This document shows positions 257 to 14,367 of a stretch of 14,367 nt of DNA, piece by piece. Position 1 is the first letter of the stretch. Every line of letters begins with the position of its first letter. A program made the translations under genes and the position numbers. Source of the stretch: a virus (taxonomy: Duplodnaviria; Heunggongvirae; Uroviricota; Caudoviricetes); IMG/VR virus record IMGVR_UViG_2654587792_000011; one strand, given 5' to 3'. The notes under the pieces were generated by a model. That model did not search any database and was not told the DNA's origin. It saw only the letters and a list, made by a program, of their open reading frames with translations.

Positions 257-483
257 GTCCATAAGAAAGCCCCTCCGGAGAGGGGCTGGAGAGTGGCGCT
301 ATGTGCCATTGCATGGTGCCGGGTGCCTCCCGGTGAATTCAGTACCAGCACCTGAATCCGCGATTATCCCATATACCTACTCGCTGATTGCCCCTCCGCA
401 CAGGGGGATTCACCATGCCAGTTTCTTTTAACAAACTCCCCGCAAAACAGACAACAGTCAACCGCCTGAATTGTGAGACATTT

Positions 484-509
484 AAAAAAAAGGCCCGCAA
501 AAGCGAGCC
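484..509 (-). terminator. Intrinsic terminator downstream of the tRNA cluster
   Basis: Read on the minus strand: GGCTCGC-TTTT-GCGGGCC hairpin (one G-U pair) followed by eight U (complement of A484-A491). Lies 15 nt past the 3' end of the last tRNA. Confidence 0.5.
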
Positions 510-523
510 AGGGAAAATAAGTG

Positions 524-600
524 TGGCGCGTTGTACTGGATTCGAACCAGTGACCGATTGCTTAGAAGGCAATTGCTCTGTCCGGCTGAGCTAACAACGC
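524..600 (-). tRNA. argO: tRNA-Arg, anticodon UCU (reads AGA)
   Basis: The reverse complement gives a 77-nt cloverleaf: acceptor GCGTTGT/ACAACGC, D-stem GCTC/GAGC, anticodon loop CTTCTAA, T-arm with GGTTCGAAT, 3' CCA. The symbol follows the ileZ-argN-argO convention for phage tRNA trios from memory. Confidence 0.85.
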
Positions 601-613
601 ATGATGCAGATAA

Positions 614-690
614 TGGACCGCCATCGGGGACTTGAACCCCGCGCAGCCAGCTTCGAAGGCTGGCGCTCTTTCCTGATGAGCTAATAGCGG
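614..690 (-). tRNA. argN: tRNA-Arg, anticodon UCG (reads CGA)
   Basis: The reverse complement gives a 77-nt cloverleaf: acceptor CCGCTAT/ATGGCGG (one G-U pair), D-stem GCTC/GAGC, anticodon stem CCAGC/GCTGG with loop CTTCGAA, T-loop GGGGTTCAAGTCCCC, 3' CCA. Symbol by convention only. Confidence 0.75.
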
Positions 691-697
691 TATGTGA

Positions 698-773
698 TGG
701 TGGCCCTTGCTGGATTTGAACCAGCGACCTGGCGATTATGAGTCGCTCGCTCTCACCACTGAGCTAAAGGGCC
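698..773 (-). tRNA. ileZ: tRNA-Ile2-like, anticodon CAT (lysidine type, reads AUA)
   Basis: The reverse complement GGCCCTTTAGCTCAGTGGT...ACTCATAAT...GGTTCAAATCC...GGGCCACCA is a 76-nt cloverleaf closely resembling E. coli ileX-type tRNA. Confidence 0.85.
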
Positions 774-822: not shown

Positions 823-1872
823 TCAAACGATTAAATCCTGAACTTCCCTGACTGTCTGCTCAAAACGTCCGGTCTCCAGCTCAACACCAATCGCACGACG
901 CCCCAGTGCCATCGCCGCTTTTACCGTTGAACCCGACCCCATGAAAAAATCCGCAACCAGATCACCAGGACGACTACTTGCGCTGATTATCTGCTGCAGC
1001 ATTTCTGCCGGTTTTTCGCACGGATGTTTCCCTGGATAGTACTGCACCGGTTTATACGTCCACACATCGGTGTACGGCACCTGCACCGTCACACCGAAAT
1101 ACCGCCGCAAATTTTTATATTCACTCAGCAGTTCCATATACTGCCGGTTCAGCTCACTGTATGTGCTGACCAGCTGGTGGTGTGGCTTTTCCAGTTCCCC
1201 GCGCTGATGTTTCTCTTCTGCCACCCGGGCAAACAACGCCTGCAATTTGTTGTAATCACCCTCGTTCGGTAACTGCCACTGACTGGTACCAAACCAGTGC
1301 GAAGCCATGTTTTTCTTTCCGGTGGCTTCCGCTATCTGTTTTGACGTTATTCCCAGTGATTTACGCGCATCACGAAAGTAAGAAATCAGCGGGGCCATGA
1401 CGTGCTGTTTTAGCTCGCGCCCCTGTGCCACATAGCCATCATCTTTCGGGCGATACGGTCCCTGATAATGTTCTGCAAACAGAATGCGCTCTGTTGCCGG
1501 AAAATACGCCCGCAGACTTTCCTTATTGCACCCGTTCCAGCGTCCGGACGGCTTCGCCCAGATAATGTGGTTCAGCACATTAAAGCGCTCACGCATCATG
1601 ATTTCGGTGTCAGATGCCAGGCGATGACCACAGAACAGGTAAAAACTTCCGGCAGGCTTCAGTACCCGCCAGAACTGCGCCAGACACTGGTCCAGCCATT
1701 TCAGGTAATCATCGTCGCCCTCCCACTGGTTATCCCAGCCCTCGGGCTTCACTTTAAAGTATGGCGGGTCTGTGACTATCAGATCGACAGAGTTTTCCGG
1801 TAAGGTCTGGATAAATTCCAAGCAATCAGCGTTGATTAACTCACAACTGGATATTTTTACAGTATTAACCAT
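823..1872 (-). CDS. DNA methyltransferase (amino-MTase, N6-adenine or N4-cytosine, beta-class)
   Basis: 349-aa ORF. Motif IV DPPY (IVTDPPYF) lies near the N-terminus and the SAM-binding motif I FxGxG (FFMGSGST) near the C-terminus, which is the beta-class order. No restriction-enzyme partner is adjacent. Confidence 0.85.
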   Translation of the reverse strand: MVNTVKISSCELINADCLEFIQTLPENSVDLIVTDPPYFKVKPEGWDNQWEGDDDYLKWLDQCLAQFWRVLKPAGSFYLFCGHRLASDTEIMMRERFNVLNHIIWAKPSGRWNGCNKESLRAYFPATERILFAEHYQGPYRPKDDGYVAQGRELKQHVMAPLISYFRDARKSLGITSKQIAEATGKKNMASHWFGTSQWQLPNEGDYNKLQALFARVAEEKHQRGELEKPHHQLVSTYSELNRQYMELLSEYKNLRRYFGVTVQVPYTDVWTYKPVQYYPGKHPCEKPAEMLQQIISASSRPGDLVADFFMGSGSTVKAAMALGRRAIGVELETGRFEQTVREVQDLIV

Positions 1873-2022
1873 AGATCAATAAGCACTTCTCTGATAGGCT
1901 CATACCGCTTTTGCGCAAAGCAGATGGGCCTGAGGTTTGCTTGTGACCCCAACGCATGAGCAGATGGCTGGCAGGTGCCGCTAACACCCACCAGCCGCCC
2001 ATTACCACAAATTAAAAAACCT

Positions 2023-2220
2023 TCACTGAGGAAGGCGTCTGTAACAACCGAACTGATAATCTGCCAGACCCGCCATAACAAGCTGAGTCAGTATTAACTG
2101 GCAGCGTTCGCGTGAAAGGTAAGTATTCTGCGCAATTTCCCCGACGGTCGCCGGTTCGGTGACGCTTAATTCATTAAACACCACTCTGGCGGTTTCGGTC
2201 ATATCCTGCTGTTTTAGCAT
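2023..2220 (-). CDS. Small hypothetical protein, possibly winged-helix
   Basis: The track ORF is 2023-2343, but its first 41 codons run into the terminator hairpin. An internal ATG at 2218-2220 with an AAGGGA-like SD upstream gives a 65-aa product (MLKQQDMTETARVV...). Confidence 0.35.
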   Translation of the reverse strand: MLKQQDMTETARVVFNELSVTEPATVGEIAQNTYLSRERCQLILTQLVMAGLADYQFGCYRRLPQ

Positions 2221-2343: not shown

Positions 2344-2371
2344 AAAAAAACCCGCATAAAGCGGGTTCTTT
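2344..2371. terminator. Strong intrinsic terminator, tR'-like for the minus strand
   Basis: A-run 2344-2350, stem CCCGC (2351-2355) / GCGGG (2361-2365), loop ATAAA, then TTCTTT. On the minus strand the hairpin is followed by seven U. About 85 nt downstream of the Q-like stop. Confidence 0.6.
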
Positions 2372-2455
2372 CAGGTGTCCATGTCTGCTATTCGCCTCGC
2401 GGTATAGCTTTGCGAAGCGTAGCTGGATTGAAACAGTTTATGCGTAAAAAATCAA
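2372..2455 (-). promoter_or_regulatory. Candidate late promoter and antitermination (pR'/qut-like) region
   Basis: Sits between the Q-like stop and the terminator. On the minus strand there is a TTGATT (-35-like) overlapping the Q stop, then 17 nt, then TTCAAT (-10-like). Assignment is by position and analogy only. Confidence 0.3.
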
Positions 2456-3006
2456 GACATTTTTTGAGCAAACGATTCTCGCATAGGGATGTATAGCGCA
2501 TATTCAGCAACAGCCAACCAATTAGCAATTCGCTTTTCGCATGTACTAAAACACCATTCCGGGTGCACCTCATTCAACAATTCAGCCATTTTGCGTTTAC
2601 TCATCCCCCGCCCTTCGTATCTTTGCCGCAGGATATCAATCAATCCAGGATAACGTGCAAGCGCTTTACTTATCACCCCATCAATGCGTAACGCCTCTGC
2701 ATCAGTACAGTGAGACAACCAGCTCTTCTGTCTGCCAGCGATCATCTCTCGCAAGAATGCTTCCAGCTCTGGTTTATCAATCCCTGACTCCCTGATTCTA
2801 CGCAGGGCTTCATTGATCGCGGTTTTTGTCAGTTTTTTGGATGTCAGCAACTGATTGAACATATTTCCTGGTTTGCCACCACCTATGTACGACCAACGCC
2901 CCCACATCCGTAATTTCCCCTGGATCCAGACGGCTTCCAGCGTTTTTAGACGTAAATGCTCGCCGCTTTTGCCTGTAATTTCCGGGTATATCATATTTAC
3001 GATCAC
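2452..3006 (-). CDS. Putative late-gene antiterminator (Q-like), called by position
   Basis: 184-aa ORF coupled to rusA by a 4-nt overlap and followed by a terminator, which is the usual rusA-Q-pR'-tR' arrangement in lambdoid phages. I cannot verify sequence homology. Confidence 0.45.
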   Translation of the reverse strand: MIVNMIYPEITGKSGEHLRLKTLEAVWIQGKLRMWGRWSYIGGGKPGNMFNQLLTSKKLTKTAINEALRRIRESGIDKPELEAFLREMIAGRQKSWLSHCTDAEALRIDGVISKALARYPGLIDILRQRYEGRGMSKRKMAELLNEVHPEWCFSTCEKRIANWLAVAEYALYIPMRESFAQKMS

Positions 3007-3362
3007 TCACTCTCAATTTTGTAAATCTTCACGCCCAGCCGCCCCCCAGGAACGAGCTGACCGCGCACAATATTAATTTCATCAAACTGCTCGTCGTCTA
3101 TGAGAAGTCCGGCATGCGTCAGCGCATCCAGTGGTGCTTTCAGGATATTGTCCAGGTCACGACGACGCTTATCCGGTGGCTCTGCAATAATCTTTATCGC
3201 CAGCCGTCCGGACAGGTTTAATTTCAGCCGCTGCTCGCGAACAATTAGCGCCACATCCCGGCGATAACGCTCACCGGCTTTTGATACAAAATATGTGTTG
3301 TCACGACGTCGCCAGTAGGTGTTCACCGTTGGCGGGTAAGGCAAAACAAACTCTATACGCAT
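3003..3362 (-). CDS. rusA: Holliday junction resolvase RusA
   Basis: 119 aa. Size and motifs (PPxxN near the N-terminus, RRRDLDN, GxLxDD) match the RusA family. Confidence 0.85.
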   Translation of the reverse strand: MRIEFVLPYPPTVNTYWRRRDNTYFVSKAGERYRRDVALIVREQRLKLNLSGRLAIKIIAEPPDKRRRDLDNILKAPLDALTHAGLLIDDEQFDEINIVRGQLVPGGRLGVKIYKIESE

Positions 3363-8465: not shown

Positions 8466-8656
8466 GGACGCACCTCCGCCGTAGTTACGTATTTAACCGG
8501 GCTACCTTTCATTGAGATGGTTTCACACATCTCTGCCGCTTTCAGTTCCGCTGTTTTTCTGGATTTATAGCGACGGTGCCAGACAGATACATCCGTGCAA
8601 ACTGATACATCGTTTCTGTATTCCGTAGTGGAGATGATGATTTCGTAACTAATCAT
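8462..8656 (-). CDS. Hypothetical phage protein
   Basis: 64-aa ORF with 4-nt overlaps to both neighbours. Confidence 0.4.
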   Translation of the reverse strand: MISYEIIISTTEYRNDVSVCTDVSVWHRRYKSRKTAELKAAEMCETISMKGSPVKYVTTAEVRP

Positions 8657-9204
8657 GGGCGAACCTCCTTGTCAGAACCATTCAGCCTGGAATCAACAAG
8701 TGCAGCGCCAAAAACAGCATCACCAACACGGTCGTACAGTTTGCTAGCCAGCGGAGATTCAACGGCCTTAAGCATTGGATAAAGCTGGCTTGTCCAGATT
8801 TGATGGATTTCACGCAAATGCAGGTATACGCCTCTGGCGTTTCGTGCGACAGCTGACATATCAACCGCGTCAGCACCAGATAAATTCTTCTCCATCTGGT
8901 TAAAGGCGTTGATGTATGCCTCTTTGAACCGGGCTGCACGTTTGCCAGTAAAGCCCATAGCAAGGAACGCGAAGCCATCGCGGGTGATTTGATAGCAAGG
9001 TAGTTTGCGGCCTGTGCAATCGGTGTAATCACTGGGCTGAAAATTCAGCTCAGTGAATTCAACAGAGCACTCAAGCGTCTGGATTTTTTGAATAACGTTT
9101 TTGTGCTGCTTGCAGAAATATTCGGCAACGGCCAAAGAAGAGGTAACAGCCTTCCCATGGATAACATCAATTTTAGGGTGAGTTTGGGTAGGGGTGGTTG
9201 CCAT
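8653..9204 (-). CDS. Phage regulatory protein, Rha family
   Basis: N-terminus MATTPTQTHPKIDVIHGKAVTSSLAVAEYFCKQHKNVIQKI matches the Rha N-terminal signature. Start taken at the internal ATG 9202-9204 (GAGGA SD upstream), because the 9501 start would read through a terminator and a repeat-rich region. Confidence 0.65.
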   Translation of the reverse strand: MATTPTQTHPKIDVIHGKAVTSSLAVAEYFCKQHKNVIQKIQTLECSVEFTELNFQPSDYTDCTGRKLPCYQITRDGFAFLAMGFTGKRAARFKEAYINAFNQMEKNLSGADAVDMSAVARNARGVYLHLREIHQIWTSQLYPMLKAVESPLASKLYDRVGDAVFGAALVDSRLNGSDKEVRP

Positions 9205-9367
9205 AGTGACATCCTCATGTGCGAATTTTGAAAACTCACCACATGGGACGCCAATCACAGAGGTGGTGAGACGTACAGGGTTGGCGTAACCGGTCGCACA
9301 TGACCCCGGCGCATCTTTCGATGCCCCTGCACGCCCCACCATAATTTGGATGTGAGGAAACGTGCGC

Positions 9368-9389
9368 AAAAAAACCGCTGAAGCGCGGT
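9368..9389 (-). terminator. Intrinsic terminator inside the early-right operon (tR1-like)
   Basis: On the minus strand: stem ACCGC/GCGGU with 6-nt loop, followed by a U-run (complement of A368-A373 on plus). Confidence 0.45.
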
Positions 9390-9488
9390 TATGCGCATGT
9401 GCGAATTTCAGGACGCCAATCCCGGCACCCGCTTTATAAGGTGCGGAGACAGTGTAACGTCCCGAAATTGCAGAATCAATATTTGGTC

Positions 9489-9518
9489 TTGAAATGATCA
9501 TATAGCTGCTGATATCTT
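9489..9518 (+). promoter_or_regulatory. Candidate sigma70 promoter for a short plus-strand antisense RNA
   Basis: TTGAAA (9489-9494), 18-nt spacer, TG-extended TATCTT (9513-9518). Confidence 0.3.
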
Positions 9519-13620: not shown

Positions 13621-13806
13621 ATGACCGTTATCGAGTATATCCAGGAAAATCCAGATTGCAGTAGAGAAGATATATCCCTCGCACTTGGAAGAAGCGCAAC
13701 TTCTATCAGTAATGAATTATCACGGTTATTGTGGAATGGGTTAATAGTACGAACTGGAGAAAAAAACAAAATGATTCTGTACTGCGTAAACAATCTGCCG
13801 TTTTGA
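13621..13806 (+). CDS. Small winged-helix-like protein whose stop codon is supplied by the IS terminus
   Basis: ATG 13621 with SD AAGGGA (13611-13616), 61 aa. The stop TGA 13804-13806 is the first three bases of the IS inverted repeat, so the native C-terminus may have been replaced. Confidence 0.45.
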   Translation: MTVIEYIQENPDCSREDISLALGRSATSISNELSRLLWNGLIVRTGEKNKMILYCVNNLPF

Positions 13807-13875
13807 AGTGGCACACTGAATTTGGCCACCTGAACAGAGGTGATATGCTCACCTCAGAACAACACAGGTGCTCCA

Positions 13876-14367
<492 letters not shown>

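Follow-up and report, generated by a model that had tools for sequence, protein, structure and literature searches.

An M.EcoGII-type orphan adenine methyltransferase gene in the late region of a lambdoid prophage, preceded by a conserved leader

The closest described relatives of the gene analyzed here are M.EcoGII and M.EcoGI, which methylate any A in dsDNA, ssDNA and RNA (PMC5778455; PMC12707154). Murray et al., who also mentioned phage 1720a-02, described two C227-11 methyltransferases as completely non-specific for A, and M.EcoGI and M.EcoGII as promiscuous adenine methyltransferases (PMC5778455). Both enzymes are unexpressed in the lysogen and deleterious if constitutive, and an anti-restriction role has been proposed for them (PMC5778455; PMC12707154). 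Reconstructed ancestors of the clade retain non-site-specific activity, assayed on RNA, and size-exclusion data that bear on dimer formation, the active state in the beta class, exist for M.EcoGII only (PMC11551740). Promiscuous dA methylation is also known from a second architecture, that of M.HaeV and its relatives (Drozdz et al., cited in PMC5778455); however, these are alpha-class enzymes, with FxGxG before DPPY, and M.HaeV has a BA preference (PMC5778455). Another 'DNA adenine methylase', M.EcoPA8orf6770P-PNB-2 of Stx2a phages, has a small adjacent partner and is a precedent for redirected substrate choice; it differs in belonging to the MT-A70 family, in being encoded at the left (early) end and in preferring 16S rRNA (PMC10810198). 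Phage Mu Mom is likened to them through a review that pairs the two.

The window, i.e., the whole stretch of 14,367 nucleotides analyzed here (IMG/VR record IMGVR_UViG_2654587792_000011), carries a gene of the M.EcoGII family (Table 1). Its product is identical to WP_059111223.1. PF01555 (N6_N4_Mtase) is the sole Pfam family matched (E 8.7e-45; 153.8 bits, with a cut-off of 26.7; aa 29-340), and the PADLOC profile MTase_II PDLC03265 matches at 5.8e-161. Because DPPY is N-terminal and FxGxG is C-terminal (motif order IV-TRD-I, where TRD is the target-recognition region), the enzyme is of beta class. The solved relatives identified by sequence and by fold, M.BceJIV, M.RsrI, CcrM, M.MboIIA, M.PvuII and M1.HpyAVI, are all beta-class amino-methyltransferases, and the designation as a beta-class DPPY amino-methyltransferase in the initial annotation is borne out by the Pfam match, the motif order and these relatives. 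An AF2 model of moderate confidence (mean pLDDT 68, pTM 0.58) was used for the fold class alone, its input alignment being shallow, with every member at 74% identity or above; a Foldseek comparison to the PDB gave 41 matches at E<=0.001 (best E 4e-9), which are DNA amino-methyltransferases, nearly all named beta-class. The first five solved enzymes listed above share the catalytic Rossmann core and the motifs with our protein (E 1e-24 to 1e-8 by sequence) and rank at the top of the Foldseek matches, but they are site-specific and have about 15-22% identity to it, with only two core segments alike; in sequence comparisons nothing in the solved beta-class enzymes aligned with the helical TRD (aa ~135-265).

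Table 1. Coordinates of the features in the window
Feature	Coordinates (nt)	Strand	Remarks
Intrinsic terminator after the tRNA cluster, strong	492..509	(-)	dG -13.8 kcal/mol, z -4.3
tRNA Arg(TCT)	524-600	(-)	
tRNA Arg(TCG)	614-690	(-)	
tRNA Ile2-type (ileZ)	698-773	(-)	CAT anticodon
M.EcoGII-family beta-class adenine-N6 methyltransferase, CDS	823..1872	(-)	349 aa, ATG start; end coordinate includes stop
Motif I	945-931	(-)	DFFMGSGST aa 308-316; FxGxG (FMGSG) aa 310-314, to which the coordinates refer
Helical TRD of the methyltransferase	about 1395-1162	(-)	
Motif IV	1770-1759	(-)	TDPPYF aa 34-39; DPPY aa 35-38, to which the coordinates refer
Conserved non-coding leader	1873..2007	(-)	~133 nt; abuts methyltransferase ATG
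Leader, 3' part	1873-1919	(-)	GCUUU/AAAGC hairpin and start region without Shine-Dalgarno sequence
Leader, 5' core	1920-2007	(-)	Candidate three-way junction (P1, P2, P3)
Terminator-like hairpin and U-run over small-ORF stop codon	2019..2036	(-)	Scan match
65-aa ORF (phrog_331, HTH-like)	2023..2220	(-)	First gene after tR'
tR'-like intrinsic terminator 3' of Q-like gene, strong	2344..2369	(-)	Hairpin 2369-2344
Presumed pR' and Q-utilisation region	2370..2451	(-)	TTGATT-17 nt-TTCAAT read by eye
Q-like late antiterminator gene (DUF1133 / Phage_antitermQ)	2452..3006	(-)	Profile matches

The reading frame was examined for disruption of the catalytic motifs and found to be whole, with all motifs present; DPPY and FMGSG are intact here and invariant in family alignments. 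Purifying selection acts on the coding sequence: among 52 relatives, codon positions 1 and 2 are 81% identical, compared to 46% for position 3. The gene had also been called an orphan, and this is upheld by two results. When six proteins of the window were scanned against PADLOC profiles, the methyltransferase alone matched, whereas its five neighbours did not; and no restriction gene is present in the RefSeq annotation of the RM12579 prophage (99.5% identical). The conserved module (486-2355) contains just the tRNAs, the methyltransferase, the leader and the 65-aa ORF, and the adjacent endonuclease gene of a Type II restriction-modification system is absent.

We compared the protein to M.EcoGII of E. 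coli O104:H4. The reference was taken from the supplement of PMC11551740, in which machine-reading errors (NHHIWA, TKVP-Q, GRRRAIG) were corrected, and the corrected sequence, one of two variants, proved in an exact look-up to be AFS73976.1 / AKE83937.1 / A0A0E0Y1D5_ECO1C. When the gene of phage 1720a-02 was searched against E. coli genomes, the 60 best matches included no O104:H4 record. The two proteins, both of 349 aa, are identical at 325 of 349 positions (93%) without gaps, and share the beta-class order and the lack of any extra domain (M.EcoGII of C227-11 / 2011C-3493; PMC5778455). The full-length similarity, with no domain gained or lost, and the same neighbourhood in a lambdoid prophage or Enterobacterales phage fit the M.EcoGI/M.EcoGII clade. 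The placement and class given in the initial annotation are supported, but its claim that the sequence does not reveal the target is not, in view of the full-length identity to an enzyme that methylates adenine in any context. By this identity, the present enzyme is expected to methylate adenine in any context, in dsDNA, ssDNA and RNA, and its "motif" is likely to be any A.

A different reading, assumed in the initial annotation, is that of a sequence-specific orphan methyltransferase that recognizes a motif of its own, with a specificity arising from substitutions in the TRD. Indeed, 12 of the 24 differences from M.EcoGII fall inside the 78-residue TRD (aa 160-237), which is 15% divergent compared to about 4% elsewhere, and every solved beta-class relative is site-specific. 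However, M.EcoGI, which differs from M.EcoGII at 16 positions (333/349 identical), is also described as non-specific; the far more divergent reconstructed ancestors remain so, in RNA assays; O111 homologues (92-93% similarity) are classed as non-specific by prediction, with no detectable motif; and most of the differing TRD residues agree with the consensus of the family and with the reconstructed ancestors, rather than being novel. We consider a motif-specific enzyme highly improbable, although the 12 TRD substitutions could have changed its preference to some extent, relative to M.EcoGII. Because the non-specific relative is 93% identical, the methylome of an active enzyme would be expected to show diffuse m6A without a motif; consequently, taking the absence of a new motif as a refutation would wrongly reject an active enzyme.

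It can also be asked whether the main substrate is RNA (late transcripts, rRNA or the adjacent tRNAs), so that the enzyme would regulate the lytic programme and would not act against restriction. In vitro, M.EcoGII also accepts RNA and DNA:RNA hybrids as substrates, and the other Stx-phage methyltransferase introduced above was once thought to be a DNA enzyme, yet favours 16S rRNA once complexed with its small partner protein (PMC10810198); the present gene, too, has a conserved small upstream ORF, as well as neighbouring tRNA genes. On the other hand, M.EcoGII in vitro methylates some 90% of A or more when the substrate is DNA, compared to about 30% when it is RNA. The identification of our gene with the rRNA enzyme of PMC10810198 was ruled out, as that enzyme is of a different family: the MT-A70 type (M.EcoPA8orf6770P / M.EcoGV) is not seen here, with PF01555 as the only match and a late-operon position. 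Furthermore, the tRNA cluster accompanies the methyltransferase in just 3 of the 77 loci from other species, and 21 of these 77 loci have an intact methyltransferase but lack the small ORF. RNA as the main substrate is therefore unlikely, in our estimate, and we return to an adenine methyltransferase acting on DNA.

The gene is not rare. The family is present in 1,939 of 5,426 complete E. coli genomes, in many Stx phages and in many Enterobacterales; as such it is a common, already known prophage gene, ordinary in itself. Across other Enterobacterales species its usual place is between Q (65 of 73 loci) and the lysis genes (57 of 67), as it also is in phiP27, mEp460 and a Providencia phage. 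The order in the window is Q, presumed pR', tR'-like terminator, 65-aa ORF, weak terminator, leader, methyltransferase, tRNAs (a trio named ileZ/argN/argO in RefSeq and phage records), terminator, nanS-p esterase and lysis genes; the annotated coordinates confirm the earlier placement of the methyltransferase, with the Q-like gene on one side and the tRNAs on the other. Synteny extends to the M.EcoGII locus (RusA, DUF968, Q, a 67-aa ORF, the methyltransferase, tRNA Ile2/Arg/Arg, nanS-p, holin, lysozyme), which shares the conserved leader 5' of the methyltransferase. The two loci differ in the upstream Q, which is of DUF1133 type here, whereas in the O104:H4 locus a 113-aa Q of PF06530 type precedes two genes on the opposite strand. 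In Stx phages (phiP27 L24, 1720a-02 and Stx2a/2c/2d-converting phages) the gene order is the same, with ~90% nucleotide identity over ~486-2355, which covers the tRNAs, the methyltransferase, the leader and the small ORF. Unlike these phages, this prophage has no stx genes, their position being occupied by an STnc100 sRNA, and, beyond a mosaic joint at about 2355, its Q and pR'/tR' sequences bear no relation to theirs.

The Q-like protein matches DUF1133 (1e-102), Phage_antitermQ (28.1 bits, with a cut-off of 26) and the PHROG 'anti-termination protein Q-like' (8e-78); no sequence match to solved Q structures was found. Downstream of this gene, the hairpin GAAAGAACCCGC-UUUAU-GCGGGUUUUUUU has a dG of -22.4 kcal/mol (z -6.1), and none of 200 shuffles folds as well; a position of the methyltransferase downstream of a tR'-like terminator, proposed previously, agrees with this folding. 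The consensus terminator scan missed this hairpin. The region between it and Q is presumed to contain pR', by analogy of position to the annotated pR'/qut of HK620 and P22. On the strand of the gene, a promoter scan from Q to the methyltransferase ATG found no sigma-70 consensus promoter, the candidate listed in Table 1 being below the threshold. The hairpin over the small-ORF stop codon is weak in the window (dG -6.9 kcal/mol, z -1.8), but its stem is preserved in other genera by compensatory changes (GCCTTC/GAAGGT, GCCTCC/GGAGGC, GCTGTC/GGCAGT, GCCGCC/GGTGGA). The terminator after the tRNAs would be a further barrier that Q-modified polymerase has to read through.

The position behind Q and the terminators suggests late, Q-dependent expression of the methyltransferase, and fits an enzyme that is silent in the lysogen and deleterious if constitutive; non-specific activity, silence and toxicity are all projected here from what has been published on M.EcoGII, its 93%-identical relative. 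Alternatively, a defective prophage could carry the gene as a silent passenger that, in this strain, is not expressed at all or yields an inactive enzyme. In favour of this, no methylation was detected for M.EcoGI, M.EcoGII and the O111 homologues in the strains that naturally carry them, the late promoter is weak by consensus, and no Shine-Dalgarno sequence precedes the start codon. Nevertheless, the ORF is whole with all of its motifs and is under strong coding constraint across genera, the nearly identical RM12579 prophage retains integrase, excisionase, replication, lysis and terminase genes, and silence without induction is what the late-operon placement predicts. A dead or permanently silent passenger is thus extremely unlikely.

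The leader that abuts the methyltransferase ATG is strongly conserved: its mean pairwise identity is 82%, versus 46% at the third codon positions of the methyltransferase, and its conservation equals that of the non-synonymous sites of the methyltransferase. An nhmmer search with the leader gave 179 matches in 178 of 210 sequences, and 174 of the matches are directly 5' of a methyltransferase ATG. Covariation points to a folded RNA: both sides vary in 13 of 23 pairs, a value that none of 500 shuffles reaches, and 93% of cells are paired, compared to 25-51% with the partners slid. The covariance model (R1) has a single match in the window (77.5 bits, E 2e-17); in Xenorhabdus/Photorhabdus, which retain a P2-like hairpin in a shorter leader, it scores just 15-18 bits (E 0.1-0.5). 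The strands of the candidate helices P2 and P3 are GGCUGG/CCAGCC and UCUGCU/AGCAAA. Helix P1 is ambiguous, as the 5' AUGGGC can pair with either GCCCA or GCUCAU; the sole compensatory case (L015) suits both, and the HK620 leader core has the GCUCAU partner alone. The leader, the 65-aa ORF and the second terminator-like hairpin are absent from the initial annotation.

Several identities of the leader were considered. A SAM/SAH riboswitch or another known RNA was ruled out, since no Rfam family matches at E<=10. A 47-aa upstream ORF (1865-2008) was ruled out by 1-nt indels in relatives, an unconserved ORF end and a closed ATG frame in one locus (L109). A regulator specific to the methyltransferase is tenable only in part, since the 5' core is also found in front of holin genes, at the head of the lysis operon, in phages without the methyltransferase. 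We found nothing relevant in the literature on a late-operon leader RNA.

The 65-aa ORF matches phrog_331 (1.4e-37; PHROG category, unknown function). Its NCBI name is TrmB-family HTH regulator; the TrmB match is weak (E 0.005) and comes from a longer, 106-aa reading (2026-2343). Homologues are found 5' of the methyltransferase in phiP27 (100%), 1720a-02 (97%), mEp460 (52%) and a Providencia phage (42%), and the ORF lies on the same strand, 85-160 nt 5' of the methyltransferase, in 56 of the 77 species loci. The leader and the small ORF may have a regulatory role. Tentatively, and with rather less than even confidence, we suggest that the methyltransferase, rather than being an independent late gene, could be the output of an undescribed conserved three-part control module, comprising an HTH-like protein, an intrinsic terminator and a structured leader RNA (which would be a new RNA family). 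The leader RNA would then gate or meter the translation or transcription of a toxic enzyme, and its 3' half may alternatively pair with the methyltransferase start region; given the structured leader and the lack of a Shine-Dalgarno sequence, translation may be weak or conditional. Alternatively, the RNA would serve the late transcripts of lambdoid phages more generally, at their 5' end.

Taken as a whole, the locus most probably encodes an orphan DNA adenine-N6 methyltransferase of the M.EcoGI/M.EcoGII type, acting without regard to context and placed in a Q-dependent late unit of a lambdoid prophage. In the lysogen, transcription from pR' would halt at the terminators, and the toxic enzyme would not be made. 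Upon induction, Q-modified RNA polymerase would read through the terminators, and the methyltransferase would accumulate during phage DNA replication and packaging, giving progeny genomes with dense, incomplete m6A. In the next host, such m6A could blunt the many restriction enzymes of Types I, II and III that adenine methylation blocks. Self-protection of phage DNA against restriction, also put forward in the initial annotation, is a reasonable interpretation and has already been published for this family. Heavy methylation could harm the phage as well, because an M.EcoGII-modified plasmid (80% m6dA) transforms E. coli 10^4-10^5-fold worse (PMC5778455).

The gene itself adds one allele (WP_059111223.1) to a family whose prototype, M.EcoGII, is widely used for chromatin footprinting and m6A writing. 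The late-operon position would account in a simple way for the published silence in lysogens and, in practical terms, motif-free m6A should be expected in post-induction phage DNA. The leader could matter more than the methyltransferase, since a toxic non-specific enzyme needs tight control; if functional, it would represent an RNA element of phage late transcripts not described before.

The methyltransferase gene (MTase), annotated initially as a beta-class DPPY enzyme, was described correctly in its coordinates, class and motifs. Its translation matches Pfam N6_N4_Mtase (E 8.7e-45, 153.8 bits; cut-off 26.7), and motif IV precedes motif I, from which it is separated by ~270 residues; the order is therefore that of the beta class. 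A sequence search of the PDB returned beta-class amino-methyltransferases exclusively, with M.BceJIV as the best match (1.8e-24) and further matches to M.RsrI, CcrM, M.MboIIA, M.PvuII and M1.HpyAVI, the likeness being limited to two core segments. An AF2 model of moderate confidence (alignment of 46 family members; pLDDT 68.4, pTM 0.58) shows a Rossmann core with a helical middle region, and its Foldseek neighbours are the beta-class enzymes already found by sequence. Public databases already contain the exact protein (WP_059111223.1), whose contig of 14,367 bp is the window in full. The gene is intact and selectively constrained, codon positions 1 and 2 being 81% identical, compared to 46% for position 3, among 52 relatives.

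Features of the late region around the methyltransferase gene
Feature	Position	Strand	Details
Q-like gene	2452-3006	minus	DUF1133 1e-102; PHROG 'anti-termination protein Q-like' 8e-78
Candidate pR' (presumed late promoter), TTGATT-17-TTCAAT	~80 nt between Q-like gene and tR'	minus	weak, read by eye
Strong intrinsic terminator (tR'-like)	2369-2344	minus	dG -22.4 kcal/mol, z -6.1
Small ORF, 65 aa	2220-2023	minus	3' of tR'-like terminator
Weak hairpin + U-run	2036-2019	minus	overlaps small-ORF stop codon; terminator scan
Leader, ~133 nt	1873-2007, core 1920-2007	minus	abuts MTase ATG
MTase CDS	823..1872	minus	349 aa, ATG start (ORF list)
TDPPYF (motif IV)	aa 34-39 of MTase
DFFMGSGST (motif I)	aa 308-316 of MTase
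Three tRNA genes	773-524	minus	Ile2-type CAT, Arg TCG, Arg TCT
Strong terminator after tRNA cluster	509-492	minus
nanS-p-type esterase gene	starts at window 34, continues past window end	minus

The position of the gene was borne out as well: the Q-like gene and a tR'-like terminator precede it, and the tRNAs follow. The Phage_antitermQ match of the Q-like gene is just over threshold; the promoter scan reported no site on the minus strand in the Q-to-tR' stretch and no consensus promoter of the MTase's own. The hairpin at the small-ORF stop codon is followed by a 150-nt spacer and then the MTase. Its stem, weak in the window, is preserved via compensatory changes in other genera; therefore, the MTase sits 3' of Q and behind two terminators. 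The tRNA gene at 698-773 (-) is called tRNA-Met (CAT) by ARAGORN and tRNA-Ile (ileZ) in RefSeq and phage records, where ileZ is an isoleucine tRNA with a CAT anticodon.

The closest complete genome is that of E. coli O55:H7 RM12579 (99.5% identity over 96% of the window), in which the counterpart is a prophage beside mlrA with integrase, excisionase, immunity, replication, lysis and terminase genes; its annotation contains no restriction gene. In a PADLOC scan of six window proteins, the MTase alone matched (Type II MTase model, 5.8e-161), and no restriction partner was found among the five others, none of which had a match. On these two grounds, the MTase is an orphan, as had been claimed.

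M.EcoGII is a 349-aa beta-class enzyme borne on a prophage of E. coli O104:H4 (Murray et al., PMC5778455). It methylates adenine irrespective of the surrounding sequence, in dsDNA, ssDNA, DNA:RNA hybrids and RNA; the lysogen does not express it, and constitutive expression slows growth (PMC5778455). M.EcoGI of the same strain (333/349 identical) is treated as promiscuous too, and phage 1720a-02, which is also among the DNA matches to the MTase region of the window, carries a very similar gene (PMC5778455). We took the M.EcoGII reference sequence from the SUPREM supplement (PMC11551740), with machine-reading errors corrected; by exact look-up, the corrected sequence is the O104:H4 protein AFS73976.1 / AKE83937.1 / A0A0E0Y1D5_ECO1C. 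The window MTase is identical to it at 325 of 349 positions, with no gaps. The target-recognition region (TRD, aa 160-237, limits as in PMC11551740) accounts for 12 of the 24 differences, the N-terminal core for 7, the linker for 4 and the C-terminal core for 1. The literature on this 93%-identical enzyme suggests that the MTase would methylate adenine non-specifically, be silent in the lysogen and be toxic; that half of the differences fall in the TRD is a caveat for the predicted specificity. According to the initial annotation, the sequence cannot reveal the target, whereas homology to M.EcoGII predicts no motif at all; the annotation also took the absence of a new methylated motif as disproof, a criterion by which an active non-specific enzyme would be misjudged.

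The late-operon position offers a concrete reason for silence in the lysogen, where late-promoter transcripts would end at tR'. Upon induction, Q-modified polymerase would pass the terminators into the MTase, which would then modify phage DNA during replication, so that progeny may resist restriction systems blocked by adenine methylation. This anti-restriction mechanism is essentially the published interpretation already, and the self-protection role proposed at first stands as a reading in agreement with it. Plasmid DNA treated with M.EcoGII transforms 10^4-10^5-fold worse (PMC5778455); methylation in vivo must therefore be partial or tolerated in some way.

The arrangement is conserved. In the O104:H4 locus, the genes follow one another as RusA, KilA-N, DUF968, Q, two opposite-strand genes, a 67-aa ORF, M.EcoGII, tRNA Ile2/Arg/Arg, nanS-p, holin and lysozyme. 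Phage phiP27 has the same order, with stx2e after the tRNAs; mEp460 (81% identity) has the holin immediately 3' of the MTase, and a Providencia phage (63% identity) keeps the gene order. A survey that took a single genome for each species covered 80 loci, which range from Escherichia albertii to Xenorhabdus, Photorhabdus, Providencia and Serratia. A Q homologue on the strand of the MTase precedes it in at least 65 of 73 loci, lysis genes come after it in at least 57 of 67, and tRNAs do so in just 3 of 77, all of these counts being lower bounds because the seed protein set was limited. Among 5,426 complete genomes of E. coli, 1,939 have the gene, in up to 5 copies per genome; it is also present in 304 phage records, chiefly of Stx2-converting phages. 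Identity among full-length relatives in the phage collection falls abruptly from 55% to 28%; phages and prophages of Enterobacterales thus make up a compact clade, and the SUPREM authors likewise remarked on the compactness of the M.EcoGII clade (PMC11551740).

Two mosaic joints were observed. One lies at the tR' hairpin (window ~486-2355 versus 2356-3100): the segment that spans the tRNAs, MTase, leader and small ORF has ~90% identity with Stx phages, which do not share the Q gene or the presumed pR' region. The last ~560 bases (13804-14367) do not align to the otherwise 99.5%-identical RM12579 prophage, which indicates another boundary near the early-left region. Many short-tailed Stx2a phages of the 933W type (e.g., KP682380 PA27, HG792105 P14437) retain the MTase 3' end alone, i.e., the last 33 codons (aa 316-348, 85-88% identity), which looks like a recombination scar. 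In the IMG/VR contig L108 (2141-2446), a deletion has placed codon 283 of the MTase immediately after the leader (to ~column 115), so that the gene survives as an inactivated remnant.

Other RNAs were also detected in the window. Rfam STnc100 sRNA (257-447 (-), 139 bits, E ~3e-31) separates the tRNAs from the nanS-p esterase gene, at the place where Stx phages have stx; thus, the window prophage is stx-negative. C4 antisense RNA (9259-9346 (-), 75 bits) and isrK (9368-9444 (-), 62 bits), both above the gathering score, fall within the 5' part of a 282-aa 'Rha family' ORF (8653-9501), which suggests a P1/Gifsy-like antisense-controlled antirepressor module with a shorter true CDS. The presumed short pR'-to-tR' transcript (2344-2420 (-), ~75 nt) has no more than a sub-threshold likeness to isrK (21.6 bits, E 0.1); in Stx phages, the sRNA StxS has been described at this position.

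The leader profile gave 179 matches in 178 of 210 sequences, one per locus, and 174 of them directly adjoin the MTase ATG. Mean pairwise identity of the leader is 82% across genera, versus 46% at MTase third codon positions. A coding function was rejected because indels of 1 nt separate relatives and, in the IMG/VR contig L109, the ATG frame is closed. The structure was tested with 55 distinct sequences, a three-helix model and 500 shuffles: 93% of cells are paired, 13 of 23 pairs changed on both sides, none of the shuffles equalled the covariation, and sliding the partner gave 25-51% pairing. In helix P2 (GGCUGGUGGGUG / CACCyrCCAGCC), 9 of the 12 pairs covary, and G-U pairing is used on the sense strand; helix P3 covaries too, one of its pairs being CG 25, UA 12, AU 9 and UG 6. 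P1 is almost invariant, and an alternative partner exists for its 5' strand, so that either of two candidate pairings may apply. The leader had no Rfam match at E<=10, and its covariance model found one match in the window (77.5 bits, E 2e-17). The 5' 87-nt core is also present in two MTase-less IMG/VR contigs (L109, L101), just 3' of a P22-like pR'/qut/tR' region and ~95 nt 5' of the holin, and in diverged form before holin S of HK620 (25 bits, E 6e-5); it is therefore a late-operon leader element and not specific to the MTase. MTase loci alone have the 3' half, which contains a GCUUU/AAAGC hairpin between GGCCCAC/GUGAGCC flanks; two lineages show compensatory changes there. The MTase start region, which comes next, has no Shine-Dalgarno sequence and, in minimum-energy folds, is paired with the P3 3' strand. 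A plausible role of the leader would be to limit expression of the toxic MTase.

The small ORF belongs to phrog_331, where function is unassigned; NCBI names the protein a TrmB-family regulator (annotated HTH), and the Pfam TrmB match is weak (E 0.005, on a longer 106-aa reading). All four reference phages carry the ORF 5' of the MTase, with the N-terminal MLKQ.DMT and RCQL.LTQ..AGL motifs invariant, and so do 56 of the 77 species loci, where its distance from the MTase is nearly constant (85-160 nt). The protein could regulate the MTase or act as its partner.

The MTase finding is real and correctly located, and it concerns a family that is very common and has been characterised before. The leader RNA and the small ORF seem to be the sole undescribed parts, and they merit separate study.
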